DNA from: an uncultured Lachnospiraceae bacterium
Lineage (GTDB): Bacteria > Bacillota > Clostridia > Oscillospirales > CAG-272
NCBI GenBank assembly: GCA_964527575.1
Contig: CAZGQH010000001.1
Location: 1 to 25,500, forward strand
Reading direction: 5' to 3'
DNA length: 25,500 nt
A program made the position numbers and the translations under genes. Position 1 is the stretch's first letter; every line of letters begins with the position of its first letter. Positions 467 to 25,500 of the stretch are shown piece after piece. Under the pieces are notes generated by a model. That model saw only the letters and a program-made list of their open reading frames with translations. It searched no databases and had not been told where the DNA came from.

Positions 467-1711
467 TTACCGGTCAAAATAATAATTCCGATAATTCTTG
501 TAATGGGAGAGATAAAAACGGGTGATGCGTGCAAAACGCCGGATCGAAAAGTCATTCTTGTCATACAAGGTATAGAGGCAGTGCCGCGAAAGCTCCCGAA
601 TCTCCCGAGAGAGTTCCCGATCCTTCACATACTTGCGAAGCACCCCCTTCGGCACATTCGACCACATGCCCCCGGCCTTGCCGAACAGCACTGCATGTTC
701 CCTTCCGAAGACCACGCTTTCGATCATCTCTTCCATCATATTGATTCCGGCAGCCCGGACGAAAAAAGAGGATCGCCCCAGGCGGGGATTGATCTCAAAC
801 ATCAGATAGCGCCCGGTCTTCGCGTCATACTTCATGTCGATATTCGAAAAACCCCGGTAACCGATGGCGTTGAGAAAAGCTTCGATCTTTCGGTAGAGCG
901 CTTCCTCACTGCGGGGCAGAATCGCTGCATAATTGCCGAGCGTATAGGGGGCATATTCCTCCAGCACCGGCTGTCCCAGCGCCGAGACCCGCAGAATTCC
1001 CTCGTTATCCGAAAAGCTGTTGATCACCCGCATAGCGCTGTCCGGCCCCTCGATATATTCCTGCAGAATCAGCTTGCCGCCATAGCCCGCCTTGTCGAGA
1101 GCCTCCGCTACCCGGCGGTATTCCTCACGCGAGGCGAGAAAATAGACCTTTTTCTTACCCTCAAACTGGCAGTGCAGATATTCGTAGGCATTGCTGTTCT
1201 CAGGCTTTAGGATAATGGGATAGGAAAAGGGCAGGTCATCCCCGCCTGTCACACGTCCCTCCTTCTCCACCACCACGGTTTTCGGATAGTCCAGCCCGTG
1301 TTTCTCGCAAAGGGCGTAAAACTTATCCTTCGTCTCGAAGGAGGAAAGCAGCGCAGGATCGGGAAAGGCATTTGCCACAAGCCCCTCAAAACGGTCATAA
1401 TTCTTCGCCATCAGCGCCGCATAATAGTCCGAGCAAGCCACAACCACCAGCTTCTCATATTCGGCCGAGGCTTCCCGCAAAACCGAGAGCAGCGAAGGCA
1501 CAAAGATCTCCTCCCGGTCAAAATCCTCAAAAAGCCTACAGTCAAACAGCCGGCTGTATCGCGTGGGCGTCAAAAGCCTCTTGCAGACAAGAAGCGGCTT
1601 CACATCGTACTTCTCCCGGATCAGGCGCACATCGCCATAGGCGTTTTCATCGCTGCCCAAAATGATCGGCAAAAACTTTTTCTTCATCACAGATTCTTTA
1701 TCGGATGTCAT
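467..1711 (-). CDS. ATP-grasp carboxylate-amine ligase, D-aspartate ligase (Aslfm-like)
   Basis: Motifs recalled from enterococcal D-aspartate ligase run along the whole length: FLPIILGSDENAYG, TPTRYS, KDKFYALCEKHGLDYPKT, YPIILKPENS, QFEGKKK, LILQEYIEGPDSAMRV, GNYAAILP, GYRGFSNIDMKYD, FEINPRLGRSSFFV. Start placed at ATG 1711 (AGGA-containing RBS upstream); ATG 1687 is an alternative. Confidence 0.8.
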   Translation of the reverse strand: MTSDKESVMKKKFLPIILGSDENAYGDVRLIREKYDVKPLLVCKRLLTPTRYSRLFDCRLFEDFDREEIFVPSLLSVLREASAEYEKLVVVACSDYYAALMAKNYDRFEGLVANAFPDPALLSSFETKDKFYALCEKHGLDYPKTVVVEKEGRVTGGDDLPFSYPIILKPENSNAYEYLHCQFEGKKKVYFLASREEYRRVAEALDKAGYGGKLILQEYIEGPDSAMRVINSFSDNEGILRVSALGQPVLEEYAPYTLGNYAAILPRSEEALYRKIEAFLNAIGYRGFSNIDMKYDAKTGRYLMFEINPRLGRSSFFVRAAGINMMEEMIESVVFGREHAVLFGKAGGMWSNVPKGVLRKYVKDRELSREIRELSRHCLYTLYDKNDFSIRRFARITRFYLSHYKNYRNYYFDR

Positions 1712-1725
1712 CCCAATCCTTCTCC

Positions 1726-3300
1726 TCACAGACTGACCGCTTCTTTTTCGACCCTCGACCCTGCTTCACATGCATCAAGGCAGTGTGCAACCACCGCCTC
1801 GTCCCCTTCGTAATAGACCGCCCCGTAGGCCATCTTCTGTTCGGTCTCGCAGCCTTTGCCGCAGACGAGAATCAGACCGCCCTCTTTTTCAAGAAGCGAA
1901 AAGGCCGCCGCAATCGCATCCGCCCGAGGAAGGAGGATCTGGCAGTCCGCCCCACCGAGAGTCACATAAGGGGCGATCTCGCGGCAGATATCTTCTGCCT
2001 CCTCCGGACCGGGATCGTCTTCGGTCAGAATCACATGATCGACCCGTTCCCCCGCAACAAGCCCCATGTCCCGCCGCCGATTCTTCGCCTTCCCTCCGGG
2101 ACAGCCGAAAACCAGCACCTTCTTTTTACCGGGAAACTGCTCGTCCGCAAGATCCAGCAAAGCCTCCAGGCTCATCTTGTTGTGGGCATAGTCCACCAGC
2201 ACCGAAAGCGAGCGGTCCCGCGTTGTAAAGCATCTGCCCCGCCCGGGCACCGAAGCCCGGGCAAGACCCGCTGCCATAGAAGTGGGGGGGATGTTCAGCG
2301 CATAGGCAAGTGCCAGTGCCCCCAGGGCATTGGCGAGATTATAGCGCCCGGGAAGGGGCAGAGAGAAGCGATGTTCTTCTCCGGCAAAGAATACGGTAAA
2401 CTCACAGCCCGTCTCGGAAAACTCCGCTTCGCTGCAAAAGAGATCGTCCTCCTTCCGCCAGCCAAAGGTGATAAGCGAACAGCCGCAGGAAAGAGCCTTC
2501 TTATGTATTTTCTCGAAGTATTCGGCGCCCGAGAAAACACAGGCCGTTTTGGCATTTTCAAAGATCTTCAGCTTTGAGGCAAAATAGTCTTCAAAATTCG
2601 GGTGCTCCCGGTCGCTGATATGATCCTCCCCGATATTTAAAAAGGCCACCGCTTCAAAGTCAATTCCGGAAACTCGGTGATATTTCAGTGCCTGACTGGA
2701 CACCTCACAAACCGCAAAAGGAAGGTGGTTTCGTCCCGCCGCCGCCAGGCGCTGCCAGAGAGGGATTGCCTCCGGCGTGGTGAGCTGCGCCTTCTCTTCC
2801 CGCTCCCCGTCGTAGACTGAAAGCGACGAGATATGCGCATTGCGACGGCATCCTTGTTTTGCCGTATAGTCATCCAAAATTTCGCTCAGAAGAACCGACA
2901 CCGTGGTTTTCCCCTTGGTTCCGGTGATTCCCACCTTGCGGACAGGCCGAGCTTCCTCCCCATAAAAGACGCGGGCCGCAATCGCCATCGCAAGGCGGAT
3001 ATCCCGCACAATCAGACAGGGGGCATCGACATAGCCGGCATAGCGCTCCTCCGCCATATAGAGAAGCGCCCCTTTCTCCAGAGCGGAAAAAAGATACTCC
3101 CGCCGGAATGCCGCTCCCTTACAGACAAAGAGGAAGCCCGGCTTCACCTGACGGTTGTCGAAGGAGATACCGGTGATCGCCCCCTGCGGAATACCGACCG
3201 TTTCTTCGGGAATCTCGACCGTTCCTTGCGGCAGATCGGCTTCGATCAAAAGCCCCGCCTCTTCCAGCGCCTCGGCGATTGTCTTCGGAAAACAAACCAT
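1726..3300 (-). CDS. murE: Mur ligase, MurE family (UDP-MurNAc-Ala-Glu:diamino acid ligase), probably not meso-DAP-specific
   Basis: N-terminal DNRQVKPGFLFVCKG, P-loop GITGTKGKTT, LTTPE, EVSSQAL, FLNIGEDHISDREH, YFASKLKIF, VDYAHN, GKGCE. The specificity loop reads DDPG. ATG at 3300 follows an AAGGGGG RBS. Confidence 0.85.
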   Translation of the reverse strand: MVCFPKTIAEALEEAGLLIEADLPQGTVEIPEETVGIPQGAITGISFDNRQVKPGFLFVCKGAAFRREYLFSALEKGALLYMAEERYAGYVDAPCLIVRDIRLAMAIAARVFYGEEARPVRKVGITGTKGKTTVSVLLSEILDDYTAKQGCRRNAHISSLSVYDGEREEKAQLTTPEAIPLWQRLAAAGRNHLPFAVCEVSSQALKYHRVSGIDFEAVAFLNIGEDHISDREHPNFEDYFASKLKIFENAKTACVFSGAEYFEKIHKKALSCGCSLITFGWRKEDDLFCSEAEFSETGCEFTVFFAGEEHRFSLPLPGRYNLANALGALALAYALNIPPTSMAAGLARASVPGRGRCFTTRDRSLSVLVDYAHNKMSLEALLDLADEQFPGKKKVLVFGCPGGKAKNRRRDMGLVAGERVDHVILTEDDPGPEEAEDICREIAPYVTLGGADCQILLPRADAIAAAFSLLEKEGGLILVCGKGCETEQKMAYGAVYYEGDEAVVAHCLDACEAGSRVEKEAVSL

Positions 3301-4796: not shown

Positions 4797-5540
4797 TCAC
4801 CCGCCCGTCTTTTGACCCTCCAGATAGGAGAGAATCGCTTCGCAGAGAACACCCGCCATCCGCTCCCGGTAGTCGGCGCTGGCAAGGAGCGCTTCCTCGT
4901 AGGCATTGGAGAGAAAGCCGCACTCCACCAAAACCGCCGGCTTAGTGATCCGATGCAAGAGATAGATCGAGCTTCCCGCTTCTTTCATCGGACGTTTGTT
5001 TTCCGACTGAAGCTTCTCCACAATCGCTTTCTGCATCGTCTCAGCCAGAACGCGGCTCTCGGGGTGATTGGGGGAATAGTAAAAGGTCATTCCCTTCACC
5101 GAGGCGTCGGGAAATTTGTTCATGTGAATGCTGACAAAAAGGCAGTTTTCATTTTCCTCGGCGATCTTCAGCCGTGCCCGCAGATCGCCGTTTTTGGCGG
5201 AAGAAGCGCCCTCGGCGGTGAGCATCACATCCTCGCTGCGGGTCAGAAGGGTCTTCACCCCGGCCTTTTCCAGCGCCGCCGCAAGCTTCAGCGAGAGATC
5301 GAGGTTGAGCTCCTTCTCCAGCGTTCCCTTGACGCCCACAGCACCGCCGTCCATCCCCCCGTGTCCCGGGTCGATGATAACCGTCAGCTCTTTTTTCCCG
5401 TCTTCGTTATTGACAGACGAGGTCTTTGGTGCTACAATATTGCCAAGATAGGAAGAAAGCATAAAAATGCCGTAAGCCGCCGCCGCAAGAAGCGTGCAGG
5501 CGAACAAAATACAGAAAAATGCCTTGAGAAAAACTTTCAT
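4797..5540 (-). CDS. N-acetylmuramoyl-L-alanine amidase (Amidase_3), CwlD-like, with an N-terminal membrane anchor
   Basis: VIIDPGHGGMDGGA, LEKELNL, DLRARLKIAEE, FVSIHMN, PAVLVECGFLSN. Hydrophobic N-terminal segment. The CwlD assignment is an inference. Confidence 0.85.
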   Translation of the reverse strand: MKVFLKAFFCILFACTLLAAAAYGIFMLSSYLGNIVAPKTSSVNNEDGKKELTVIIDPGHGGMDGGAVGVKGTLEKELNLDLSLKLAAALEKAGVKTLLTRSEDVMLTAEGASSAKNGDLRARLKIAEENENCLFVSIHMNKFPDASVKGMTFYYSPNHPESRVLAETMQKAIVEKLQSENKRPMKEAGSSIYLLHRITKPAVLVECGFLSNAYEEALLASADYRERMAGVLCEAILSYLEGQKTGG

Positions 5541-5565
5541 AGGTCACCCGTTCCTCGTTTTTTTC

Positions 5566-5595
5566 ATGTATATGCCGCCAAAAGCCGGTTTATTT
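5566..5595 (-). promoter_or_regulatory. possible sporulation (sigmaE-like) promoter upstream of the amidase
   Basis: Minus strand AAATAAA-14 nt-CATATACAT, resembling the sigmaE pattern (ATA-type -35, about 14 nt, CATA..T -10). It sits inside a 12-bp inverted repeat, TTCCTCGTTTTT (5551-5562) / AAAAACGAGGAA (5598-5609). Confidence 0.3.
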
Positions 5596-5627
5596 TGAAA
5601 AACGAGGAAACCGAGTGAAATTATCGC

Positions 5628-6236
5628 TCAGGAATAACGCTTTGTGCCGGAATCCTTTCCGCCCTTCCTGAAAAAGCCGTCCTTGAATTTCACGCCGAAA
5701 AGATAGGATATCCCGGCCACAAGAATGGCAGGCAGCGGCAGAAGCGCCACCAAAATACTGTTGCCCGGAGAAAGCGTCTGAATCACACCGGTATACATCG
5801 CCTGAATGAAGCGGGCGATCAGATTGCAAACCCCATAGCCCGAACGCGCCCATGCGGGCGAGTAGAGGATTTCGGGGTCAAGCTCCCCGGTAAGCGAAAC
5901 GCCCATGATTAGACGGAAGATCACCGCCAGAATGCCGAGCAGCAGATTGAGTGAATTGGCCGCCAGTCCCACCAGAAAGAAACGCATGGGACGCGGGGAA
6001 ATCCTGCCTGCCTCGATGCGGATACCGTCCTTCTGTCCGTTCTCATAGCCCACCGTGAACACCAGATAAAGATAAAAGAGAATGCAGAAAACCGACGAGG
6101 CGGGAAAAAGCCAGCCCGCTTTGTTGGTGCTTCCTCCCGTCGCAAAGGCGGTAACCAAACCCATAATCATCAGACCCAGCTGAAAGACGATCAGCTTGAC
6201 GATGAGATAGGAATTTTCCTTAAAAAATTTTTTCAT
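5628..6236 (-). CDS. hypothetical integral membrane protein, about 4-5 TM helices
   Basis: 202-aa ORF with several hydrophobic stretches, an AAGGA RBS and a matching upstream promoter. No family recognised. Confidence 0.7.
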   Translation of the reverse strand: MKKFFKENSYLIVKLIVFQLGLMIMGLVTAFATGGSTNKAGWLFPASSVFCILFYLYLVFTVGYENGQKDGIRIEAGRISPRPMRFFLVGLAANSLNLLLGILAVIFRLIMGVSLTGELDPEILYSPAWARSGYGVCNLIARFIQAMYTGVIQTLSPGNSILVALLPLPAILVAGISYLFGVKFKDGFFRKGGKDSGTKRYS

Positions 6237-6312
6237 TTTCGCATCCTTTCAAACAAGGGAAACTTCCCCGGCCAAACAGAAAAAAACTCGCTTGTGCCGG
6301 ATAGACAGCTTC

Positions 6313-6341
6313 ATTATATACCAAATCGCCGGCGAATGCAA
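6313..6341 (-). promoter_or_regulatory. sigmaA-type promoter at the head of the membrane protein/amidase/radA/murE/D-Asp ligase gene string
   Basis: Minus strand TTGCAT-17 nt-TATAAT. Confidence 0.6.
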
Positions 6342-6388
6342 CCGCATTTTTCGTTTTTCATCCGATATTCATAAAAGGAGTCTCCGCC

Positions 6389-7417
6389 ATGAACGACAGC
6401 CCTCAGCTTGTCCGGGATTTTGTCACCTATAAGCTCTCGATACAGAACCGCTCCCCAAAGACCGTCGAGCAGTACGAGCTCGATCTCGTCATCTTCTTCC
6501 GCTTCCTTGTCGCCAAGGAACAGGGTCTTCCCACCCTCGGCGAGGAATTCGACAAGATCGATATTTCCGCGATCGACATCGATTTTATCCGGAAAATCCG
6601 TGAAGAGGACATCTACGAGTTCTTTCACTATGTCACCAAGGAGCGGGAGAACAAGGCGCGCTCCCGGGCGCGGAAGCTCTCCTCGCTGAAAACCTTTTTC
6701 CGTTATCTCGAGGTGACGAAAAAGCTCATCGACAAAAATCCCGCCTTAAATATCGAATCGCCCGGCGTCAAGCGGGCACTTCCGAAGTTCCTCAGCTTAG
6801 AGGAGAGCCTCACCCTTTTGGAAACGGTGGAAAAGGACACCGAGTCGGACAGCCGCACCCGGGACTTTGCCATTGTGACCCTCTTTCTCAACTGCGGCAT
6901 GCGGCTTTCGGAGCTCTGCGGCATCAACTTAAACGATATCGACAGCGAGCTACGCTCGTTGCGGGTGCTGGGCAAGGGTGCCAAGGAGCGGATCATCTAT
7001 CTGAACGACGCCTGCCGGGAGGCTTTGAAGGTCTGGATAGATGACCGCCAAAATCTGACCATCAAGGACAAAAACGCCCTCTTTATCTCCCGGCTCGGAA
7101 AGCGCATCAGCAATAAGACGGTGCAGTGGATGATCTACAAATACCTCGACCGGGCGGGGCTGGGCAACCGGCACCTCTCGGTCCATAAGCTCCGCCACAC
7201 CGCCGCCACCCTCATGTATCAGGAGGGCGGCGTGGATGTACTGGTGTTAAAGGACATCCTCGGCCACGAACAGCTGAATACCACCCAGATCTACACCCAT
7301 GTGAGCAACCGCCAGCTGGAAGAAGCCATTGACAAAAATCCGCTGGCGAAAAAAAAGGCCGACTTCCGCCCCAAAGAAGAAAAAGATATCCCCGAAGAAG
7401 AGAACGAAGAGGAATAA
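6389..7417 (+). CDS. xerC: tyrosine recombinase, XerC/XerD-like housekeeping type
   Basis: N-terminal SAM-like domain (RARKLSSLKTFFRYL) and catalytic residues in RDFAIVTLFLNCGMRLSEL, GKGAKER, HKLRHTAAT, LGHEQLNTTQIY. Flanked by housekeeping genes. AAGGAG RBS. Confidence 0.8.
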   Translation: MNDSPQLVRDFVTYKLSIQNRSPKTVEQYELDLVIFFRFLVAKEQGLPTLGEEFDKIDISAIDIDFIRKIREEDIYEFFHYVTKERENKARSRARKLSSLKTFFRYLEVTKKLIDKNPALNIESPGVKRALPKFLSLEESLTLLETVEKDTESDSRTRDFAIVTLFLNCGMRLSELCGINLNDIDSELRSLRVLGKGAKERIIYLNDACREALKVWIDDRQNLTIKDKNALFISRLGKRISNKTVQWMIYKYLDRAGLGNRHLSVHKLRHTAATLMYQEGGVDVLVLKDILGHEQLNTTQIYTHVSNRQLEEAIDKNPLAKKKADFRPKEEKDIPEEENEEE

Positions 7418-7419
7418 CC

Positions 7420-7465
7420 AAAGGACCGCCCGGAACGGCATGAAACCGTTCCGGGCGGTCCTTTT
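7420..7465. terminator. bidirectional intrinsic terminator between the convergent xerC and proC
   Basis: Perfect 19-bp inverted repeat AAAGGACCGCCCGGAACGG / CCGTTCCGGGCGGTCCTTT with a 7-nt loop. Confidence 0.85.
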
Positions 7466-14345: not shown

Positions 14346-17300
14346 TTATACCTCGTTCTGATCGGTCCAAAGTTCGCACTGGCGGATAACCGTATCGATG
14401 GCATCCTCATATTTTTCCGGCGGATAGTGATAGTGCTTCAAAAGCCGCTTGACCATCTTCCGCATACCGGCGCGGGCCGTCTCTTTTTTCTGCCAGTCGA
14501 TGGTACGGCTTTTGCGGAGCATTTCGGTCAGCTCGCGCGTCAAGGCGATCAAGGTATCGTTTTCGTAAAAATCCCGGATATGCTCCGGCTTCGTCAAAGC
14601 ATCGTAGAACGCCAGCTCTTCTTCCGAAAGTCCCAGCTTTTCTCCCTCCCTGCGAAGGGTGTTGATCTCTTCCGCCGTTTTCAGAATCTCTTTGATAACC
14701 TCTTCATTGGTAATCAGGCCGTTGTAGTAGGTGTTCATCAGCAGCGTGATCTTCTCGGAAAAGACAGTCGCCTTGACCACATTGGTCCGGCGATAGATCG
14801 CAATCTGCTCAGCCATAAGCTTCCGCAGGATCTCCGCCACCAGATTCTTTTCCTTCATCTTGGCGATTTCGGCCAGCACATCGGGATCGAAAAGCGAAAA
14901 ACGCTCCCCAAGCCTGTCGCTCTCAAAGAGGTTGATCACCCCCTCGGACTGAATGCTCGCTTTCAGAAGCGCATTAATCTCTGCGTTGATTTCCTTCAGC
15001 GAAAGTGGCTTTCCGCCACCGCCGCCCATGGTGATTTTCATCACGGCAGCGCGAACCGCTTCAAAATATGCCGCCGCATGGCGCTCTTCCCCGGTCGTCA
15101 TACTGGAACAGAGCGACTCTGCCTGACGGAGCAGCAGCGCCTCCTTAATAAACAGCTCTTTTCGTTTCGGCACTCGAGCGTCCAGAATAAAGTTGACGCC
15201 TCCGGTGATAACCTGTGCCTTTTCAAGCGGGGTTCCGGTGAAGAATTTACCGTGATCAAATCCATGAAACAGATCGCGGCAGACCTGCAGCTTCTCCTGA
15301 AATTTCGGATAGGCGGTCTTTCCGATATCCATATCGCCGTATTTCTGCCGGTCGCGGGCGGTATACTCCCGCATGGCCTCTTTGAGCGCGGATGCGATGC
15401 CGACATAATCGACGATCAGCCCGCCCTCTTTATCCCCGAACACACGGTTGACGCGGGCAATCGCCTGCATCAGATTGTACCCGTGCATAGGCTTGTACAC
15501 ATACATGGTGGCAAGAGACGGCAGGTCAAAACCGGTCAGCCACATATCCACCACAATGGCGATTTTCAAAGAATCATCGTTGTCCTTGAATCTGCGCGCC
15601 AGTTCTTCTTTATAGGCCTTTGTTCCGACAATCTCTTTCCAATCCTCCGGATCGTTGTTGCCACCCGTCATGACAACGGCAAGCTTTTCCTTCCAGCTTG
15701 GACGCAGCTCTAATATTTTACGATAAATTTTGATGGCGATGGGGCGGGAATAGGCCACGATCATCGCCTTTCCGGTCAGAAGATTCGCGCGGTTTGCTTC
15801 ATAGTGGGTGACGATATCCTCACACAGCGACTGTATCGTGGAATCCGCGCCGAGTACGCTTTCCATCTGCCCGAGCATCTTCTTGCTCTTCTCGATCGTG
15901 GCGCTGTCGGACATCTGCTCCAGCGCGTCATAGGTGGCGTCGATCAGTCGGAGCATGTCCGGGTCGAGCTTCAAATGGATGACACGGCTTTCGTAATAGA
16001 CCGGGCGCGTTGCGCCGTCCTCCACTGCCTGCGTCATATCGTAAATGTCGATGTAATCGCCGAACACCGCGCGGGTGTTGCGGTCCTTGGAGGATACCGG
16101 CGTGCCGGTAAACCCAACAAAAGTGGCATTGGGCAGCGCGTCATGAAGGATTCGCGCATTGCCGGTGACCACACGGGCTTCTTGGTTGCCCTCGCTGTCT
16201 TCGGCCATCACCACGCGCTCGTCAAAGCCGTATTGCCCCCGGTGGGCTTCGTCTGCGATAACCACAAGATTCCGGCGGTCGGAAAGCGGTGCCTCCCCCT
16301 TTTCAAACTTGAACATGGTGGTAAAAATAATGCCGTGTGCGGCCCGGCCGGCAAGGAGGGATTTCAGATGCTCCTTGCTTTCCGCCTGAAGCGGGGTCTG
16401 ACGGAGAAAGCCGGCGCATTTGCAGAACTGCGCGTAAAGCTGATCGTCCAGATCGATACGGTCGGTCATCACGACAATCGTCGGGCTATGTAATACCTCC
16501 TGCAAAAGATGCGCGTAAAAGACCATCGACAGCGATTTGCCGCTTCCCTGCGTGTGCCAGAAGACGCCGCCCTTCCCGTCGGTCCTGGTGGCAGCGACCG
16601 CTTTTTCTGCCGCCTTGCGCACGGCGAAATACTGGTGATAGCCGGCAAGAATCTTGGCCGGCTTTTCGGCATCGTCGGAGAAACAGATGAAGTTTTTCAG
16701 AAGATCAAGCAGCCGCTCCTTTTGAAACATACCCTCATAAAAGGTGTCAAACTGCGCATAGGCGGTGTTTTCGTAGCTGCCGTCCTTCGTTTTCCACTCC
16801 ATAAAGCGGTCAAATCCAGAGGTGATCGTCCCCGCCTTGTTGGTAGAAAGATCGCTGATGACGCAGATGGCATTGTAAATAAAGATCGATGGGATGTCCT
16901 GCATATAATTCCGGAGCTGATTGAAGGCATTTTCCGCGCCCACCTCGTCCTGAGAGGGACTCTTCAGCTCCATCAGGACAAGCGGCATACCGTTGATAAA
17001 TAAAAGGATGTCCGGACGGCGGTTGTTGCCGTTTTCGATGAAGGTATACTGATTAACCACCGAAAACTCGTTGTTTGCCGGCTTTTCGTAGTCAATCAGC
17101 CGCACAAGCGCCGCGCGCTCCTCCCCGTCCGCAAGATAATTCACCTCTACGCCGTCCTGCAGATACCCCGTGAAGGTGCGGTTCTTCTGCACAAGACTTC
17201 CGCTCTCAAATTCGCACAGCTTCCCCATCGCTTCCCGAATCGCCGCCATCGGCAGACCCCGATTGATCCGGACAAGCGCATCCTGAAGCACACCGGTCAA

Positions 17301-17414
17301 AAGTGGACTCGAAAAGTCCTCCCGATTCAGATCGGGAGCGTATATGTGGGTATATCCCATGCGCTCGAATAGCTCGATGATGGCTTGTTCGAAGGTAGAT
17401 TCGGTGAATGACAT
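14346..17414 (-). CDS. hsdR: Type I restriction enzyme subunit R
   Basis: Nuclease motif RRPDILLFING...ELK, Walker A WHTQGSGKS, IADEAHR, GFTGTP, IVVDMWLTGFD, QAIARVNR. 1022 aa. Confidence 0.96.
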   Translation of the reverse strand: MSFTESTFEQAIIELFERMGYTHIYAPDLNREDFSSPLLTGVLQDALVRINRGLPMAAIREAMGKLCEFESGSLVQKNRTFTGYLQDGVEVNYLADGEERAALVRLIDYEKPANNEFSVVNQYTFIENGNNRRPDILLFINGMPLVLMELKSPSQDEVGAENAFNQLRNYMQDIPSIFIYNAICVISDLSTNKAGTITSGFDRFMEWKTKDGSYENTAYAQFDTFYEGMFQKERLLDLLKNFICFSDDAEKPAKILAGYHQYFAVRKAAEKAVAATRTDGKGGVFWHTQGSGKSLSMVFYAHLLQEVLHSPTIVVMTDRIDLDDQLYAQFCKCAGFLRQTPLQAESKEHLKSLLAGRAAHGIIFTTMFKFEKGEAPLSDRRNLVVIADEAHRGQYGFDERVVMAEDSEGNQEARVVTGNARILHDALPNATFVGFTGTPVSSKDRNTRAVFGDYIDIYDMTQAVEDGATRPVYYESRVIHLKLDPDMLRLIDATYDALEQMSDSATIEKSKKMLGQMESVLGADSTIQSLCEDIVTHYEANRANLLTGKAMIVAYSRPIAIKIYRKILELRPSWKEKLAVVMTGGNNDPEDWKEIVGTKAYKEELARRFKDNDDSLKIAIVVDMWLTGFDLPSLATMYVYKPMHGYNLMQAIARVNRVFGDKEGGLIVDYVGIASALKEAMREYTARDRQKYGDMDIGKTAYPKFQEKLQVCRDLFHGFDHGKFFTGTPLEKAQVITGGVNFILDARVPKRKELFIKEALLLRQAESLCSSMTTGEERHAAAYFEAVRAAVMKITMGGGGGKPLSLKEINAEINALLKASIQSEGVINLFESDRLGERFSLFDPDVLAEIAKMKEKNLVAEILRKLMAEQIAIYRRTNVVKATVFSEKITLLMNTYYNGLITNEEVIKEILKTAEEINTLRREGEKLGLSEEELAFYDALTKPEHIRDFYENDTLIALTRELTEMLRKSRTIDWQKKETARAGMRKMVKRLLKHYHYPPEKYEDAIDTVIRQCELWTDQNEV

Positions 17415-17539
17415 ATTACTCTCCGATTAATTATTGTATTTTGTGTTTATTAAACTTTTGTGTTTAAAATATCAAGATAATTCTGTGATTTTTAAAATAT
17501 GATTACTGCATAATCTTATCAGCATAGCATTTTCATTGT

Positions 17540-19585
17540 CTATTTATCGCTAAGCACTTTTAACTGCTGCTTAAAATATTTTGAGCAAAGCTTGTCCTTT
17601 CGTTTTTCCGAAGATAGATATTCCCAAACTTTCCCCAAATATGTCGGTAAAGTTATCACAAAGAGATTAAAGAGCCATACGATTGCACTTACAATTACCT
17701 CACTTATGTCTTCACTCTCTAGAATGTTGGTTAGCAAACTTGCGATCGGCTTCACCTTGAATATCCAACACAGCAAAATAACCACTGCTAGCAATATTAC
17801 AATTCCTGTGACAATTAGTGGAATATGTGCTCGATGAGAAAACCATTCAACTTTTCTTTGAGCCTTTCTTTGAGAATATATTTGAGCATATTCTTCAGAG
17901 GACTTTTTGCTTTCTAATTCTTTTCTATATTCTTCCGTAGCTTTTTTCGATGCTTCTTTTTCTGCTTCAACGGCTTTTAACAATTCTTCTTTGTGCAATC
18001 CTTTTTCCTGTTTCAAAATTTTATCAAAAGCACAATCAACTGATACTTCATAATTTTCAGGATCATCGAAAGAATAATTACCTCTGTTTTCCAGAATCTC
18101 CTCAATGATACTTTCCTTAAGACGAGTATCAACTGTTTTTTGAGATATTACCGATAAAAGCTCAACTGGATTGATATTGATATTATCTTCTTCAGTGCGA
18201 AAATGTCTCAAAGTCATAAACATACAAAATGATTTGTAGTCATCATCTGTAGCTCTGCCAGCAACTTTTAAGATAATTGACAACCAAAGGCTGGGAATAA
18301 CCACAATCGGAACCCCGTTGAAGTTTTCCTCTGACCATGCGACAAGCAGTTGATCCGCAGAAACTATGTATTCGTTCATGCTCCATAGATTTTTTGCATT
18401 TGGAGGGCGTATTGAATTAATATACAGTACCTGACATACATCTGTTTTTATCGAATCATCGGTGGTTCTTTTATATGGTCTTTTTTCAGTTTTGTATTGT
18501 TTTAAACTTTCAAAAAGTTGTTGCTTCGTTTGGGAGGAAATATTGATGGTCGAAGAATCAACATATTCAAAATCTTTAATGGCGCTACTAATCTTGCTTA
18601 TCAAATATTTTCTGAAAGACGCATAATCATTGTATTTGTTTTGAATTTCTTTGCACCAGTTGTAATAAATCAAATAAAAATCATTGATTTCAAATCCACC
18701 AGATATCTTCGATAACATCTCTGCATTTACCGGAGGTTGAGCGTTCGTAATTGCTCGTATATATTTTATCTGTGCATCGATAACTCTATATAATTCATTT
18801 AGTACCGCACTCGAGTAACATAAAGTGATTCCAACTTCTTTGCATTTTTCAACAAATGCTTTTGAAACAAATTTTCGTTCATCTTTATTAAATCCAGCAA
18901 TTCTAAAAATAATATTCGTATCAAGGAAGAATTTTTTTCCTCTAAAGATCGACTTGGAAATTGTAGGATTTTTGTTCGATGTAATCAGACAATACTCATA
19001 GCAAGACGATATAACCGAATAAAGGAATCTGTTTTTATCATCATTTTCCCATCGTAAAAATTCATTAATAATTTCAATCTCTTCCGAAGATGGATTAAAT
19101 TCACTGTTAAATCTCAAAAAGGAAATCTTTTCTGAATCACCATCCATAATAGTAAGTAAATTTTGGGCATTTGAGTTAAAGCAATAATATAAAAAACTCT
19201 GTATAAGACTTAAAAGTGCGTTCTCGTCAAAATCAGTTCTTTCATCGGAAAAAAGTTTCAAATAGTATTTCAGTTTTTCCAATGCAGACGATTGTGCCGC
19301 CAATTGATTAGCCGTTTTTTCACTCAATTGGTAATACAGCCCGTTTTTTACAATTCTCCCCCGACCTTTTGCTTTAATAGCTGTCTCAATTTCAGTAATA
19401 TCAAACTCAAGTAGAAACTTATTTTTTATTCTTGTACAGATTTCTAAAGATGACTGCTCATTTTTCTCGGAATCAAATAGAATGTACTCAGCAAATTTGC
19501 AAATATACTTATCTCTGGTTGTAGCGCCCTGATTCTCGAGAATCATCGATAAACGAAGCAAGTCCTTCTCCTCGAAGTTTGTCAT
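17540..19585 (-). CDS. AT-rich 681-aa protein: putative PIN-like nuclease domain, coiled coil and two C-terminal TM helices
   Basis: Long ORF in very AT-rich DNA with a GGAGG RBS 9 nt before ATG. PIN-like pattern FFLDTNII (D222), SAVLNEL (E264), IKTDV (D382), IVSADQLL (D411). Charged helical stretch at about aa 521-580. Hydrophobic segments at about aa 588-609 and 630-650. ORF confidence is high; the domain call is moderate. Confidence 0.7.
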   Translation of the reverse strand: MTNFEEKDLLRLSMILENQGATTRDKYICKFAEYILFDSEKNEQSSLEICTRIKNKFLLEFDITEIETAIKAKGRGRIVKNGLYYQLSEKTANQLAAQSSALEKLKYYLKLFSDERTDFDENALLSLIQSFLYYCFNSNAQNLLTIMDGDSEKISFLRFNSEFNPSSEEIEIINEFLRWENDDKNRFLYSVISSCYEYCLITSNKNPTISKSIFRGKKFFLDTNIIFRIAGFNKDERKFVSKAFVEKCKEVGITLCYSSAVLNELYRVIDAQIKYIRAITNAQPPVNAEMLSKISGGFEINDFYLIYYNWCKEIQNKYNDYASFRKYLISKISSAIKDFEYVDSSTINISSQTKQQLFESLKQYKTEKRPYKRTTDDSIKTDVCQVLYINSIRPPNAKNLWSMNEYIVSADQLLVAWSEENFNGVPIVVIPSLWLSIILKVAGRATDDDYKSFCMFMTLRHFRTEEDNININPVELLSVISQKTVDTRLKESIIEEILENRGNYSFDDPENYEVSVDCAFDKILKQEKGLHKEELLKAVEAEKEASKKATEEYRKELESKKSSEEYAQIYSQRKAQRKVEWFSHRAHIPLIVTGIVILLAVVILLCWIFKVKPIASLLTNILESEDISEVIVSAIVWLFNLFVITLPTYLGKVWEYLSSEKRKDKLCSKYFKQQLKVLSDK

Positions 19586-19673
19586 TTTTGTTATCCTCCA
19601 TTTCGGCTAAATAATCACAGTCAATAAGTTCATCCATTGATGAGAGAAGCCACTTTACAATTTCATTAATCAT
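19509..19673 (-). CDS. candidate 54-aa acidic small protein overlapping the start of the PIN-like gene
   Basis: GAGGTG RBS (19682-19687) lies 8 nt before ATG 19673. Reads MINEIVKWLLSSMDELIDCDYLAEMEDNKNDKLRGEGLASFIDDSRESGRYNQR*. Overlaps the downstream gene by 77 nt, which lowers confidence. Confidence 0.3.
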   Translation of the reverse strand: MINEIVKWLLSSMDELIDCDYLAEMEDNKNDKLRGEGLASFIDDSRESGRYNQR

Positions 19674-19766
19674 ATCCATATCACCTCAACACCATTTTAT
19701 TTAGTATCGGCATTGATTGTGATATATAAACCCAAGTTAAAAAATAGTTAAACGATAATTAGCAGC

Positions 19767-20933
19767 TTAGAGCTGGACGGCAGAAACATCGATCTCGCCG
19801 GACATCAACTTCGGCAGAAGTGCATTCCGTAGTTCAGCTAACCTGATATTTTCAAGAGCATTGTAACGCATTTTGAGAAACATCGGTGCTACTGCTTCTC
19901 CAAACTTCGATAGACTCTGTTCATCAAATTTGGGGAGCCGGAACTGTCCTATGGTTTCAGCGGAAACACGCTGCCTTCCACTGCTACCATTCATGTTTTT
20001 GACTGCGTAATCGACAAACGCAGGATAACGAGCCAGACAGTACAGCATTTCAGCTGGTACACCATTTCTGGGAGCAAGCACAATATACTCTGTCGAACCA
20101 AAAGCTACTTCGCTCTCATCGAGAAAGTCAATGAAAGCAGTCTTGCCGTTTTCAAGGCATGGGGTAATACGCGCTAAAAGGGTATCACCATTGGTAAAAC
20201 GCATTCCTCCGTTAAATGCTTTAATTTCCCATCCAGAAGGAAATACTCCACTTGTTGATAACTGGCTCATATCAATACTTCGAGCGATTTGATTCTTTGC
20301 CAATACTCGCCTCGGGTTGAGATACGCATAATCAGACACCGTACAGTTGTCATTGTCAGCATCAATCATGAGCCTGTTAAAGAAAACAAATGCTTGCTGC
20401 TGTAAATTATCGTTTATCCGATTGTTGAGTTCAATTCTATCATCTAAGCACTTTAAGGTTGAAGCAATCACTTGCTGGTCATATAAGGGAGGAATAGGAA
20501 GCTCTAATAATTCCAGTACATTCTGTTGAACTCGTTGTCTTCCAGAAGATCCTACCATTGATTTTATTGCAGGATTTCTTACAAGCGGACTTGTTGCCAA
20601 ATAATATATAAAATTTGGATCACTTACACCCGGAATTGCCCGCATAACGATATATTCCGTAGAGCCAAATGCAACCTCATTATTATCAAGAATATTTACC
20701 AAGGCAGTCTTTCCGTTTTCCAAACACGGAGTAATCCTCGCCATAATGGTGTCACCGTTACGGAATTTTGCTCCACCTGAATACGCTTCAATCGTATATG
20801 CTGGAATATCTCTCGAAAAAGGATGCAAAACATCCATAGAAATTTTTTTAGCAATTGTACCTTTCGGCAATTTTTCCGATGGATTAAAGGAAATCACATC
20901 GTGTAATTTGCATTTTCTCCACTCAGATGCCAT
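19767..20933 (-). CDS. hsdS: Type I restriction-modification specificity subunit S
   Basis: Two TRDs separated by the conserved helical spacer ([35 protein letters not shown]), C-terminal [22 protein letters not shown] 20933 overlaps the end of hsdM. Confidence 0.95.
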
Positions 20934-22425
20934 ACCCAATTGCCCCCAGCTTTTCCCGGATTTCCTTCTCTAACTCGTGCGACTTTTCGAAAAGCTCAGC
21001 AAGTTCTCCGGTCAGTCGTTTCATTTTTTCGTCGAACGGCTCGTCATCCTCGGCCTGCTCCTCGATACCTACATAGCGTCCCGGTGTCAAGATGTAGTCC
21101 TGCTTGGCAATCTCCTCGGTGGTCGCAGCTGCACAGAAACCCTTTTCGTCGGCCAGCACGCCGGCCGCAAAGGCGTTGTAGGTATCGGCAATTTTCCGGA
21201 TGTCGCTGTCGGTCAGCTCGCGGTTCTTGCGTGTGACCATCGTGCCCATTTTGCGCGCATCGATAAAGAGGGTCTTGCCCCTCTGCTTCTTATTCTTTGA
21301 GAGAAACCAAAGCGACACGGGAATCGGCGTGGTATAAAAGAGCTGGGTCGGCATGGCAACGATGCAATCCACCAGATCGGCGCTCACGATATTCTTCCGG
21401 ATTTCTCCTTCCCCGCCGCTCTGGGAGGAAAGCGAGCCGTTGGCCAGCACCATGCCGATGCGTCCGTTGGGCGCCAGATGATAGATCATGTGCTGAAGCC
21501 ACGCAAAGTTGGCGTTTCCCGCCGGAGGCGTGCCGTATTGCCAGCGCAGATCGTCCGCCAACTTGTCCGCGCCCCAATCTGAGAGGTTGAAGGGCGGGTT
21601 TGCCATGATGAAATCCGCCCGGAGCGTCGGGTGGCAATCGTTGAAGAAGGTATCGGCGTTGAACTTGCCGAGATCGGCGTCGATGCCGCGAATGGCAAGA
21701 TTCATCTGCGCCATTTTCCAAGTGGTCGGGTTGGAGTCCTGCCCGTAGACCGAAATATCGTTGATGTTGCCGCTGTGGCTCTCGACAAATTTCGCCGACT
21801 GCACAAACATGCCGCCGCTTCCGCAGCAGGGGTCGTACACCCGCCCGTGGTAGGGCTGTAAGACCTCTACCAGTGTGCGCACCACGCAGGAGGGCGTGTA
21901 GAACTCACCCGCCAGCTTGCCCTCCTGCTCGGCAAATTTGGAAAGACAGTATTCATAGGTCCTGCCGAGAATGTCCTTCTCGTCCCCGTGCTCGATCATC
22001 TGAATATTGGTAAAGAGGTCGACAACCTCTCCGAGCCGGCGCTTGTCCAGCTCCGGACGGGCGAAATTCTTCGGCAGGATATCCTTCAGCCGTTTGTTGT
22101 CCTTCTCAATGGCGCGCATGGCGTCGTCAATTGCCGTACCGACTTCCGGCGTGTGCGCCTTTGCGGCGATATCGCTCCACCGTGCGCCCTGCGGCACAAA
22201 GAAAATGCCCTCGGAGGTGTACTCGTCGATATCCTCTTCAAATCCGTCGCCTTCGATTACAAGCTCTCTGTGTTTTTCCTCGAAGCGGTCGGAGATATAT
22301 TTCAGAAAGATCAATCCCAGCACCACATTTTTATATTCGGACGCATCCATATTGCCGCGCAGCACGCACGCTGCATCCCAGATCTGTTTTTCAAAGCCGA
22401 TTGCGGCGGTGATTTTTTCTGCCAT
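20923..22425 (-). CDS. hsdM: Type I restriction-modification methyltransferase subunit M (N6-adenine)
   Basis: [17 protein letters not shown], motif [12 protein letters not shown], motif IV ANPPFN, NFAWLQH. GGAGG RBS. Confidence 0.97.
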
Positions 22426-22545: not shown

Positions 22546-22575
22546 ATTATACCATATTGCCCCCTCTTTTTCAAC
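22546..22575 (-). promoter_or_regulatory. sigmaA-type promoter of the hsd operon
   Basis: Minus strand TTGAAA-18 nt-TATAAT with an extended -10 (TGG-TATAAT). Confidence 0.6.
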
Positions 22576-22706: not shown

Positions 22707-23345
22707 ATGCGAGAAGAAGAAAAAATTGCAGCGGGCATCCTGTTCTGCCCCGCCGACCCGGAGCTGAAGGCCATCAAGCTCCGCACTCATAATTTGAACC
22801 TCGACTACAACGCTACCTACGAGGACGAGAGTGAAAAAAGAGCCTCCCTTCTCGGGGAAATTCTCGGCGAGATCGGCGAGGGCGGATTTTTGCAGGGACC
22901 AATCTTTTTCCACTACGGCAAGCATACAAGAATCGGGAAGAATTTCTTCGCCAACTTCAACCTTACCGTACAGGACGATGCCGCCGTCACCATCGGCGAC
23001 AACTGCAACTTCGGCCCGAATACCACCATCGTCACCCCGCTGCATCCTCTCCTCCCCAACGAGCGGAACGCCATGCTGACCGCCTCCGGCGAGAAGAAGC
23101 ACTTCTGCTACGCCAAGCCGGTGACAATCGGCAATAACTGCTGGTTCGGCGCGAATGTCACCGTCTGCCCCGGCGTGACCATCGGAGACAACTGCGTAAT
23201 CGGCGCGGGCAGCGTCGTCACGCGCGACATCCCCGCCGGCTCCCTTGCCGCCGGCGTTCCCTGCCGCGTCCTCCGCCCCATCACCGAAAAGGACAGCCTC
23301 CGTCATCACCCCGAAATCCTCGCGGACAATCGCATCATCGAATAA
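22707..23345 (+). CDS. sugar O-acetyltransferase (maltose/galactoside acetyltransferase family, hexapeptide repeat), 212 aa
   Basis: GGAGG RBS then MREEEKIAAGILFCPADPEL; HYGKHTRIGKNFFANFN, VTIGDNCNFGPN, YAKPVTIGNNCWFGANVTVCPGVTIGDNCVIGAGSVVTRDIP. The ORF-track start at 22494 is an over-extension. Confidence 0.92.
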   Translation: MREEEKIAAGILFCPADPELKAIKLRTHNLNLDYNATYEDESEKRASLLGEILGEIGEGGFLQGPIFFHYGKHTRIGKNFFANFNLTVQDDAAVTIGDNCNFGPNTTIVTPLHPLLPNERNAMLTASGEKKHFCYAKPVTIGNNCWFGANVTVCPGVTIGDNCVIGAGSVVTRDIPAGSLAAGVPCRVLRPITEKDSLRHHPEILADNRIIE

Positions 23346-23347
23346 CC

Positions 23348-23394
23348 ATCACCCATCGGGAACAACTCCAAGCACTCCCGATGGGTGATATTTT
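23348..23394. terminator. hairpin terminator between the acetyltransferase and the trailer end of the CRISPR array
   Basis: 14-bp inverted repeat ATCACCCATCGGGA / TCCCGATGGGTGAT followed by ATTTT. Confidence 0.7.
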
Positions 23395-23467
23395 GTCCGG
23401 GTGATTCCGGAACATTGTCGCGAGCAACCTCCCGCATCTTCCCCGCCCCGACAAATACGAGAATATT

Positions 23468-25500
23468 CTTTCAACCCACGCCCCTGCGCGGGGGCGACTT
23501 ATTTGAGGACGACAATATGAGGCAGTCAAATGTATTTCAACCCGCGCCCCCCGCGTGGGGGCGACGAGTCGTCTGCCAGTAATCCGATATCCAGCCGAGA
23601 TTTCAATCCGCGCCCCCGTGCGGGGGGCGACTCGGGTAATAAGACTTTGATGCCGTTTCTCTCGTAATTTCAATCCACGCCCCCGCGTGGAGGCGACCAA
23701 GGTCGATACAGCAATATGCCAAGGCGCAAGCCTATTTCAACCCACGCCCCATGCGGGGGCGACCTCCCTGATGGGGAACCTCATAATCCGTCATATCATT
23801 TCAATCCGCGCCACCGCGTGGGGACGACCAATGGATGGTACCGAACAGCGTCGAGTTCTGCAATTTCAATCCACGCCCCCTGCGAAGGGGCGACTCTCGC
23901 AAGACTTTCTTTCCTCCCACCCACGACATATTTCAACCCGCGCCCCCGCGAGGGGGCGACTGTGTTTGTTCCGCCTCACTACGATCTGTACATATTTCAA
24001 CCCACGCCCCCGCAAGGGAGGCGACTAAGGCCATTTTCGCTGCTGTAAAACATCGGAATATTTCAATCCGCGCTCCCGCGAGAGGGCGACATGTAGACTA
24101 CCGATTTATAACGGCACTAAGCAAATTTCAATCCACGCCCCCGTGCGGGGAGCGACCCAGCTTAGTCTGGAGTTCTGTGAGCAAATTGTCCTTATTCCAA
24201 CCCGCGCCCCCGTGCGGGGGCGACAAAAATTGAGAATTGGAGTATAATGTAAAAAAACGATTTCAACCCACGCCCCCGCGTGAGGAGCGACCTCCTCTGC
24301 GGTCTTATTCGCCGCATCCTGTGACTTTCAATCCGCGCCCCCGCGTGGGGGCGACCTCACCAATCGTGCAGCATTGTCAATACTTTTCAAAATTTCAATC
24401 CACGCCTCGTCCGGGGGGCGGGGCGACTTTGCCGGGAAGTTAAACAGCCATTCTTCGAAGATTTCAACTCGCGCCCCCGCGAGGGGGCGACCAAAACCGA
24501 TGATGTTGCCGGTGTCGGGATCACAATTTCAACCCACGCCCCCGCGGGGGCGACGGCAGAGACCGACCGCTCCCGGATATACCGCAAAAATTTCAACCCG
24601 CATCCCCGCATAAGGATGACTTCACCAATCACGCGGCATTGTCAATACTTTCCAAAATTTCAATCCACGTTCCCACGCGGGGGACGACAGTACAAAATCG
24701 TAATAGTTATCCCAAACTGCATAATTTCAATCCGCGCCCCCGCGAGGGGGGCGACGAGATGTCTGCCAGTAATCAGATATCCATCCCCACTTTCAATCCG
24801 AGCCCACAAGAGGGGGGCGACCCGCCTTGTTCGGGTACGGCATGGTAGGTTTTATCATTTCAATTCGCGCCCCCGCGAGGGGGGCGACATACAAGGAGGC
24901 AAAAAAATGATTCGTGGCGAAAATTTCAACCCACGCCCCCGCAAGGGGACGACAGAAGCATAACGGCTTCGGGGTAACGGCACTGATATTTCAACCCACG
25001 CCCCCGCGAGGGGGGCGACGAGCTTTATCCGGCATTATGGTGAGGGCTCCCGAATTTCAATCCGCGCCCCCGCGAGGGGGGCGACTTATCGGTTTCAGCA
25101 AGATGTCACTTGGTCGACTATTTCAATCCGCGCCCCCGCGAGGGGGGCGACGTAAGGAAATCTTTCATACCACCGTTTGGAGCTTAATTTCAATCCGCGC
25201 CCCCGCGAGGGGGGCGACGCAAGATCTTCGGTAAGTACTATTGGTCAAGTCATTTCAATCCGCGCCCCCGCGAGGGGGGCGACATACTCCACCTTGCCTT
25301 TTTCCGTCGTCTCGATCTATTTCAATCCGCGCCCCCGCGAGGGGGGCGACGGATATTCCTGGTTTTGAGGCATCGTATATAACGATTTCAATCCGCGCCC
25401 CCGCGAGGGGGGCGACGCTGAAAAGGGCTTGAGTCAGAAGCAGTATGATATTTCAATCCGCGCCCCCGCGAGGGGGGCGACCCTTTTGTTCATGAGAAGA
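23468..25500 (-). CRISPR. CRISPR array, type I-C-like repeat: 31 repeats, 30 complete spacers of 33-37 nt plus one partial; continues past the window
   Basis: Consensus on + is ATTTCAATCCGCGCCCCCGCGAGGGGGGCGAC (32 nt); on - it is GTCGCCCCCCTCGCGGGGGCGCGGATTGAAAT, with a 7-bp hairpin and the ATTGAAA(N) 3' end. Exact copies at 24724 and at the seven positions from 25054 to 25450; variants to the left. The ATTGAAA end and the degeneracy gradient put the leader to the right and transcription on the minus strand. No cas genes in the window. Confidence 0.96.

Follow-up and report, generated by a model that had tools for sequence, protein, structure and literature searches.

Genes embedded in the operons of restriction-modification (RM) systems belonging to Type I are often defence genes, and PrrC is almost always found embedded in RM operons (10.1101/2024.01.29.577857). 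In the RRDM island of enteropathogenic Escherichia coli (EPEC), DarTG2 lies between hsdS and hsdR, a slot which has been proposed to be an insertion hotspot (PMC12255303). Defence can also be provided by one polypeptide, as in DS-3, a single-protein split-PIN system without an antitoxin (10.1101/2025.01.08.631726). Here we describe a gene, referred to as X, which occupies the hsdS-hsdR slot in a stretch of 25,500 nucleotides from an uncultured Lachnospiraceae bacterium (contig CAZGQH010000001.1, positions 1 to 25,500 of the forward strand), hereafter called the window. Judged from its sequence and predicted structure, the 681-residue product of X may be an autonomous, single-protein, membrane-tethered PIN-like nuclease directed against phages or other mobile DNA, a reading to which we give a slightly better than even chance. 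Whether the Type I RM operon carries X as embedded cargo in the hsdS-hsdR slot, with X independent of the operon, we regard as evenly balanced.

A family of hypothetical proteins with a conserved architecture

X alone showed no match above threshold in Pfam, NCBIfam, PHROGs, PADLOC or the sequences of the Protein Data Bank (PDB). None of the families in PADLOC-DB v2, a library that includes the HEC-01 to HEC-09 and PDC models, was detected at E <= 10, which agrees with the initial annotation, where the architecture was not recognised as that of a named system. In the literature searched, no system built in this way was found, and three accessions of the family, together with PIN family names, had no match in a part of the supplementary tables of Payne et al. 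A word-indexed search identified 242 relatives; a profile search run exhaustively over 1.84 billion representatives recovered no fewer than 578 clusters at 50 % identity, of which 308 had E < 1e-30. The members are nearly all 640-720 amino acids (aa) long, align end to end and are always annotated as 'hypothetical protein' in their sources, which are mainly uncultured gut and rumen Bacillota, thinly represented in RefSeq; one allele of the family is present on 772 contigs. Genome matches comprise Oscillospiraceae, Ruminococcus, Faecalibacterium, Lachnospiraceae, Christensenella and Peptococcaceae amongst the Bacillota and Capnocytophaga, Apibacter, Muribaculaceae and Chitinophagales amongst the Bacteroidota, and plasmid-borne members are found in Hymenobacter and Clostridium.

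Conservation was assessed on 119 diverse members, 22-54 % identical to X. The AlphaFold2 (AF2) model of X, built with 119 diverse homologues, attained a predicted local distance difference test score (pLDDT) of 91.2 and a predicted template modelling score (pTM) of 0.77; an earlier run with 13 close homologues only had given a pLDDT of 55 and was discarded. Five parts follow one another in the model, from an N-terminal winged helix and a linker made up of helices to an alpha/beta core into which a large helical segment is inserted, a charged helix of 76 residues and a C-terminal membrane hairpin of two transmembrane (TM) helices. Their positions in the window are as follows.

19295..19516, minus strand: winged-helix domain, X aa 24-97 (AF2), net charge about -1 across the family
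18941..19285, minus strand: helical linker domain, X aa 101-215, carrying the invariant F176 and K184 and the 99 % conserved W179
18206..18940, minus strand: alpha/beta PIN-like core, X aa 216-460, with strands b1 218-221, b2 254-258, b3 340-342 and b4 405-408 and the conserved residues D222, E264, D382, D411 and R444
17834..18061, minus strand: single long, highly charged helix, X aa 509-584 (AF2), about 11 nm if straight
17762..17827, minus strand: TM helix 1 (TM1), X aa 587-608 (AF2 and hydrophobicity)
17615..17701, minus strand: TM helix 2 (TM2), X aa 629-657, then a basic, predicted cytoplasmic tail forming the C-terminal helix (AF2 and hydrophobicity)

The winged helix, which had been suspected at aa 25-90, is seen in the model as three helices (24-38, 46-57 and 63-73) and two strands (78-81 and 84-87). 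It gave local Foldseek matches to the winged helices of IclR, NadQ and Nse, and WH_MCM3_C was matched in 4 of the 70 members scanned against Pfam. Over the family the median net charge is -1 for the winged helix, its third helix included, -4 for the linker, +4 for the core and -6 for aa 461-520. Since the domain is neutral to acidic even in its third helix, it is perhaps a protein-binding module more than a reader of DNA. The core has, in addition to the strands listed, a fifth short strand near residue 428, with more helices following up to residue 500. The large insertion placed between E264 and D382 on first inspection is likewise present, spanning approximately 280-400 and containing helices within 288-368. 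F176, K184, D222, E264, D411 and R444 are invariant in the 119 members, while W179 and D382 are conserved in 99 % and N224 in 98 %; conservation is highest over residues 160-460 and falls away steeply in the stalk and the TM region.

Two TM helices had been proposed near the C-terminus, and hydrophobic peaks are indeed observed at 590-608 and 630-648. At least one strongly hydrophobic C-terminal helix is found in all 119 members, and two in 104 of them, although the sequence of the anchor itself is not conserved. Lysine and arginine residues number five in the 15 residues before TM1, two in the intervening loop, which is about 19 residues long, and three after TM2, a distribution that would fit a hairpin of N-in/C-in topology with the whole enzyme in the cytoplasm. 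A charged coiled coil annotated at aa 521-580, on the other hand, had to be abandoned. The model has a continuous helix over 509-584, no heptad periodicity is seen (hydrophobic residues make up a fraction of 0.36 at a/d positions and 0.33 of the whole helix) and charged residues account for 43 %. The spacing from F456 to TM1 is also maintained, with a median of 127 residues and an interquartile range of 120-136. In view of the missing heptad pattern, the high charge and the conserved length, this helix looks like an ER/K single alpha-helix spacer rather than a coiled coil. No Walker A motif had been noticed in X, and none is present: the pattern [AG]x4GK[ST] found no match, and no ATPase model of PADLOC, Pfam or NCBIfam was detected.

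Evidence for a PIN-like nuclease core

The acidic tetrad on which the initial annotation had based its assignment corresponds to the most conserved part of the protein, three of the four residues being invariant. D222 follows b1, E264 lies in the helix 259-280 after b2, D382 in the helix 376-392 and D411 after b4. The surrounding motifs are of PIN type, namely F-[FY]-L-D-T-N (hhhDTN) after b1, T..T..E, an aspartate at a helix N-terminus and S-x-D after b4. X thus shows the acidic-residue pattern of the PIN-like superfamily, with three to four acids at the C-terminal ends of b1 and b4 and in the helices after b2 and b3.

Sequence searches point to the same class at low scores. When X alone was compared with Pfam, PIN_3 aligned to aa 219-271 (E 0.09, 14 bits against a cut-off of 27), and scans of 70 members yielded PIN_12 in six (best 3e-4), PIN_3 in three, PIN_8 in two and PIN in one, altogether 12 of 70 and all below threshold. 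When a profile restricted to the core was compared with all PDB sequences, a single match fell below E 0.1, VapC of the VapKSC defence system (9z7o_C, E 0.017), with an alignment extending from b1 through the glutamate-bearing helix; with the full-length family profile, PDB yielded nothing beyond noise from TM and coiled-coil segments (a designed nanopore, WRB, G protein-coupled receptors). In structural comparisons with Foldseek the highest probabilities in the PDB were those of AF1683 (1w8i, 0.98) and HARP (8kd9, 0.93), together with weak matches to FEN1, EXO1 and XPG, and the top match in BFVD was a 'PIN like domain' protein (probability 1.00, E 0.013). The order of strands and helices in the model is that expected of the PIN fold; the Foldseek matches, obtained with a query larger than the core, have target-normalised template modelling scores of 0.28-0.48. 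The agreement of these matches and the conserved D/E/D/D set favour the assignment, whereas the strength first attached to it was too great, as no match is formally significant. We consider a PIN-like nuclease fold probable for the core of X.

The Type I RM operon of the window and related operons

The genes run in the order hsdM, hsdS, X and hsdR on the minus strand, all co-directional, as originally described; ORF (open reading frame) calls and a Pfam scan agree on this.

20923..22425, minus strand: hsdM, Type I RM methyltransferase subunit, 500 aa (Pfam N6_Mtase E 4.6e-112, HsdM_N E 2.7e-30)
19767..20939, minus strand: hsdS, Type I RM specificity subunit, 390 aa (Methylase_S E 2.6e-17), guanine-cytosine content (GC) 41 %
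17540..19585, minus strand: gene X, 681 aa, candidate membrane-tethered PIN-like nuclease, GC 33 %, GC at third codon positions (GC3) 30 %
14346..17414, minus strand: hsdR, Type I RM restriction/translocase subunit, 1022 aa (T1RH-like_C E 3.2e-93, SWI2_SNF2 E 2.7e-71, HSDR_N E 1e-41; also T1R_D3-like)
22546..22574, minus strand: promoter-like site 5' of hsdM (TTGAAA, 17 nt spacer, TATAAT, with TG), 11 of 12 consensus matches, top-scoring in the region
19595..19599, minus strand: Shine-Dalgarno sequence GGAGG, 9 nt 5' of the ATG of X, read from the intergenic sequence

With a strong Pfam match for each of the three co-directional hsd genes, the set is that of a full Type I RM system. The promoter-like site is likely the operon promoter. 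A sequence scan found no terminator-like site in either the hsdS-X gap or the X-hsdR gap, and the 181-bp gap upstream of X contains no ORF. A single operon is the simplest interpretation, because a strong promoter precedes hsdM, the gaps around X are free of terminators and GGAGG precedes the ATG of X; the four genes are thus apparently transcribed together. That ribosome-binding sequence and the hundreds of full-length homologues also mark X as more than a chance ORF.

The same arrangement is retained in close relatives. All relatives of at least 52 % identity with readable flanks have hsdM, hsdS, X and then hsdR, their alleles being present on hundreds of contigs with a short gap to hsdR; on one short contig only hsdR could be read. 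The hsdS genes of these operons often form a phase-variable shufflon with a tyrosine recombinase, and the operons usually lie on integrative-element-like DNA with HTH_17, TnpV, AAA_25 and Fic genes. In P0121 hsdS lies upstream of the X homologue, the contigs of P0121, P0122, P0125 and P0126 being otherwise too short for context. In Hominenteromicrobium-type loci (L001-L006 and L007-L010; X at 10001-12046 in L001) the shufflon is accompanied by a tyrosine recombinase and inverted partial hsdS genes, an arrangement that the window does not have. These loci also carry a second embedded gene between hsdM and hsdS, which encodes a 313-aa PIN_12 protein and is missing from the window, as well as two features without counterpart there, an upstream pair of Fic-domain genes and a conserved 359-aa gene without Pfam match just past hsdR.

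Operons that share 85-95 % identity in HsdM and HsdR differ far more in X, where identity is only 57-74 %, and nucleotide identity, with its minimum in the TM region, rises sharply at the border of X and hsdR. X is therefore either fast-evolving or swapped as a cassette between alleles. Immune genes commonly show either behaviour, and each speaks against a close co-evolution with HsdR.

Genomic context of the wider family

Outside the close relatives of X the association with Type I RM is lost. The hsdS-hsdR slot is occupied only by relatives of at least 52 % identity, and contexts vary below approximately 50 %. Amongst 28 species-level genome loci, a Type I RM operon encloses the gene in three, while in at least 20 the vicinity is free of RM genes. 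The clade of the window accounts for two of the three; the third, in Capnocytophaga gingivalis (L037 6115-15371), represents a different Type I family and gene order, with hsdR (DUF4145 and EcoEI_R_C), X, hsdM, rhuM and hsdS, so that two genes are embedded in this operon, with the X homologue placed between hsdR and hsdM and a gene of the RhuM family between hsdM and hsdS. Further RM-adjacent homologues were found in the metagenome loci L070 and L118, while most metagenome loci below 50 % identity lie outside RM operons. All-against-all clustering of the neighbours in the 28 loci revealed no conserved partner gene, and no conserved small antitoxin gene stands next to X in any consistent manner across them. 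As the slot is limited to close relatives, most loci are outside RM operons and no partner is conserved, X appears to work on its own. The PrrC-like guarding of Type I RM put forward in the initial annotation is not supported as a property of the family, in view of the same three observations.

The expected recurrence of homologues near RM, defence and mobile-element genes was seen, the listings being raw and not corrected for background. A distant homologue of 710 aa on a Hymenobacter qilianensis plasmid (L043 6452-13262) lies beside a TIR gene, a SIR2 and Piwi pair (short prokaryotic Argonaute) and a DNA methyltransferase, and this region is a compact plasmid defence island. Other homologues adjoin a Septu/PARIS/HEC-02-like ABC ATPase (L030) or SLFN-AlbA_2/HATPase proteins (L019, L032), or are found near pairs of an Eco57I-type methylase and a T5orf172-helicase (L031, L033). 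In a prophage of a Clostridiaceae metagenome-assembled genome (MAG; L022 4158-10231), an intact 681-aa homologue with the TM hairpin is encoded between terL and the portal and ClpP genes and looks like a moron within the head module. A homologue on a Clostridium plasmid lies near genes of a type IV secretion system (T4SS). Pooled scans of neighbours yielded recombinases, integrases, RM methylases and a relaxase, and also HEC-02, PDC-S01 and MADS proteins.

Disrupted copies of X occur in three genomes (L017, L028, L036). A considerable share of the loci have homologues broken in two or truncated in the catalytic core, namely these three and L059, L101, L104, L106, L107, L119 and L121. Such copies fit a costly or toxic gene, with assembly errors in MAGs and metagenomes as an alternative. 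Two Bacteroidota loci encode the N-terminal module in an ORF of its own, which lies upstream of the PIN-TM part and overlaps it (L035 9594-11626, 112 and 564 aa; L037 9481-11542, 174 and 518 aa). These may represent domain fission with a toxin-antitoxin-like layout, a split form of the same protein, or frameshifts. If real, the splits would suggest a separable N-terminal regulator, which in X would be fused in cis in the manner of an antitoxin.

Base composition and other features of the window

A low-GC block of approximately 3.5 kb (17415-20940) comprises hsdS, X and the flanking gaps, with 33-41 % GC and 30-36 % GC3; the corresponding values for hsdM, hsdR and the surrounding chromosome are 54-60 % and 68-79 %. 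The dip at X is repeated in three homologous loci, where X lies 12-20 points under its hsdM and hsdR neighbours. Foreign origin, the exchange of cassettes or selection for low expression could each explain the low GC of the block. An imperfect inverted repeat of 33 nt (73 % complementary) pairs 19734-19766, in the gap just 3' of hsdS, with 20399-20431 in the central part of hsdS; it may be what is left of an inversion system such as that of hsdS in related loci, or a chance occurrence in AT-rich DNA. Neither a scan of the whole window with Rfam nor a repeat search around X gave anything meaningful.

The RM locus stands amid housekeeping genes, including groES/groEL, proA/B/C-like genes, radA, a Mur ligase and an alanine symporter. 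Amid such genes, a tyrosine recombinase gene (6389-7417, plus strand) lies within the region 5500-7420, adjoined by a stretch of lower GC (about 50 %) and a 202-aa ORF without Pfam match (5628-6236, minus strand); the recombinase may be of XerC/D type or mark where an integrated element has its edge. Two further ORFs of the window are without Pfam match at E <= 1e-4, one of 420 aa (467-1729, minus strand) and one of 121 aa (23335-23700, minus strand).

Proposed mechanism and alternative explanations

What we infer of X, namely its nuclease activity, defence function, topology, trigger and substrate, can be arranged in a simple scheme. The C-terminal hairpin, with its hydrophobic segments and charge bias, would anchor X with both ends in the cytoplasm. 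The charged helix of approximately 76 residues, whose length is conserved, may act as a spacer holding the catalytic head about 10 nm off the bilayer. The non-basic N-terminal module of winged helix and linker would probably bind a protein and keep the nuclease off until infection, much like an antitoxin fused in cis; autoinhibition of this kind is hinted at by the Bacteroidota loci which encode the module as a separate upstream ORF. Upon infection, the D222/E264/D382/D411 site, presumably metal-dependent and held at the cytoplasmic face of the membrane, would cut nucleic acid and arrest either the infected cell or the phage programme. If X is a defence nuclease acting alone, RNA would be slightly favoured over incoming DNA as its substrate, because of the VapC-like motifs and best sequence match, the non-basic surface and the precedents of PIN proteins in defence (DS-3, VapKSC, HEC-03).

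Several observations count against a tethered PIN-like defence nuclease. No curated PIN family reached its gathering score for X or the 70 members scanned, nothing in the Foldseek searches attained E <= 1e-3 (all >= 0.013), and Rossmann-fold tRNA synthetases were amongst the matches as well. In hhalign comparisons of the X family with a PIN_12 clade assembled from the gene that neighbours X in L001, the probability was at most 5 % in local, low-mact and global modes; as none of these is significant, X is not a PIN_12 member and this assignment was rejected. No homologue was found on IMG/VR viral contigs in a scan restricted by short patterns, and many neighbours of X are ordinary genes (carboxyltransferase, P-type ATPase, SelO) in defence-neighbour lists that are raw and not background-corrected. 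An RNase would moreover meet the difficulty that a membrane tether does not shield diffusible RNA, so that autoinhibition is needed, for which the hints are indirect. The first of these observations would suit a core in which the acidic residues are no nuclease site and a Rossmann-like domain has another activity or a structural role, the tyrosyl-tRNA synthetase folds having probabilities near 0.9 and no PIN match being statistically significant. We regard this as very improbable, given that the four acids occupy the positions expected in PIN domains (after b1, in the helix after b2, at a helix N-terminus and in the SxD after b4) and that every annotated match of nuclease type is PIN-like. The ordinary metabolic neighbours at several loci, the uncorrected defence association and the many loci with recombinases, integrases, TnpV, MobL or VirB4/VirD4 could also indicate that X is not an immune gene at all. 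It would then maintain mobile elements or hitch-hike as a housekeeping gene, for instance in tethered RNA processing as RNase Y does, as an addiction toxin, or in entry exclusion by an integrative and conjugative element (ICE) or plasmid. The family, however, is patchy and disrupted in several genomes, unlike a housekeeping gene, X lies inside defence operons and not at the borders of elements, and it adjoins several distinct defence systems across two phyla; we therefore give such roles little credence.

Amongst immune roles, X could be a DNA nuclease at the site of entry, similar to SNIPE and Shield, in which the tether keeps a FEN-type PIN-like head off the nucleoid and near the point where phage or conjugative DNA comes in, so that only incoming DNA is cut and no cell suicide results. 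The anchor is kept in all members despite the drift of its sequence, and conservation is strongest in the nuclease core, as in SNIPE homologues (PMC13190303); Shield ShdA is a membrane-bound nuclease working alone (PMC10270631); and FEN1, EXO1 and XPG, the weak Foldseek matches, are DNA flap nucleases. The homologue in the prophage head module would fit superinfection exclusion, and that on a plasmid near T4SS genes can be placed beside it. Yet the motifs and the best sequence match are of VapC type, a class known as RNases, and the cytoplasmic part is not basic, only the core being positively charged, with no surface resembling the DNA-binding DUF4041 of SNIPE evident. A spacer of about 11 nm would also let the head reach well off the membrane, and we judge DNA cleavage at entry unlikely, though it is the main mechanistic alternative. 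For the clade of the window, X might instead guard the restriction enzyme as PrrC does: HsdMSR would bind X and keep it inactive, and X would fire when an anti-restriction protein such as Ocr, ArdA or a Stp-like protein disables the enzyme. Consistent with this are the strict hsdS-X-hsdR position in all readable close relatives on hundreds of contigs, the short gaps to hsdR, the recurrence of X embedded in unrelated Type I operons, a non-basic winged helix which could bind protein, and the presence of prrC in the same slot (PMC12707154; 10.1101/2024.01.29.577857). Most of the family nevertheless lies outside RM operons, both in the genome loci and in metagenome loci below 50 % identity, whereas PrrC is almost always embedded. 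The divergence of X relative to HsdM and HsdR, with the identity shift at its border, resembles cassette exchange and not co-evolution with a fixed partner, and X lacks an ABC-ATPase sensor domain, all of which makes a guard quite improbable. An autonomous tethered nuclease is the reading we retain.

A more ambitious version of the autonomous nuclease is offered tentatively and is rather doubtful. X would define a new immune class, with a VapC-like PIN head, a winged-helix inhibitor or sensor in cis, a C-terminal hairpin and a rigid ER/K 'ruler', patrolling a layer about 10 nm deep beneath the membrane, the place at which nucleic acid of phage or conjugative origin makes its first appearance, and captured repeatedly by different Type I RM families as a second line. 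If the role of X were confirmed, an unnamed family of approximately 600 clusters, common in human-gut and rumen Bacillota and present in Bacteroidota, would join the bacterial immune genes. If the scheme is true, it would exemplify a new design principle in which a PIN nuclease is controlled by a membrane tether and a single-helix spacer of fixed length, not by an antitoxin or an ATPase. X is a clean test case for whether genes in the hsdS-hsdR slot are guards of the restriction enzyme, as PrrC, or independent cargo. As the family is widespread in gut commensals, it may affect phage host range and DNA uptake in genetically intractable strains.

Comparison with known systems

The PIN_12 (PF16289) protein of the Hominenteromicrobium loci resembles X in being a PIN-type gene product nested in the same RM operons, and weak PIN_12 matches occur in six X members; it differs in being a soluble protein of 313 aa, absent from the window and without significant profile-profile similarity to X. 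Closer in position are PrrC and RloC, as exemplified by EcoprrI. X occupies the same slot, co-directional and apparently co-transcribed, and both may be thought of as back-up nucleases in an RM operon. X was nonetheless rightly set apart from them at the outset, as it lacks the ABC-ATPase with its Walker A motif and matches no PrrC or RloC model. It is moreover membrane-anchored with a PIN-like core in place of the PrrC nuclease domain, and most of its relatives are outside RM operons.

With the VapC-type PIN toxins of defence systems (VapC of VapKSC, 9Z7O; HEC-03B; DS-3 and DS-5 of DefensePredictor) X shares the acidic active-site pattern and the hhhDTN motif. DS-3, compared by description only, is in addition a single protein without an antitoxin. 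The sequence similarity to this group is marginal, and the 681 aa of X add a winged helix, a helical domain, an insertion of approximately 120 residues in the PIN domain, the ER/K helix and the TM hairpin; unlike VapBC and other VapC-type systems, X has no separate antitoxin, kinase or ATPase partner.

SNIPE (TM, DUF4041 and GIY-YIG) and ShdA of Shield (TM and RmuC) are similar to X in general plan, each being one membrane-anchored polypeptide with a cytoplasmic nuclease, a localisation which for X is predicted. In both cases the anchor is kept in presence and not in sequence, the nuclease is the most conserved part and the loci are variable or defence-linked. X differs in its PIN-like domain in place of GIY-YIG or RmuC and in its C-terminal hairpin in place of an N-terminal single pass. 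Pfam and PADLOC gave no match to DUF4041 or GIY-YIG in X even at E <= 10, and X has no basic DNA-binding domain resembling DUF4041, which sets it apart from SNIPE in particular.

The genomic logic, finally, is that of 'guilt-by-embedding' as applied to genes within Type I RM, BREX, DISARM and Hma loci, which include the HEC and PDC sets and DarTG2, although X matches no HEC or PDC model in PADLOC-DB v2. The concept is already known in its parts, from defence genes nested in Type I RM operons, single-protein nucleases and membrane-bound nucleases, while the X protein family itself is new.

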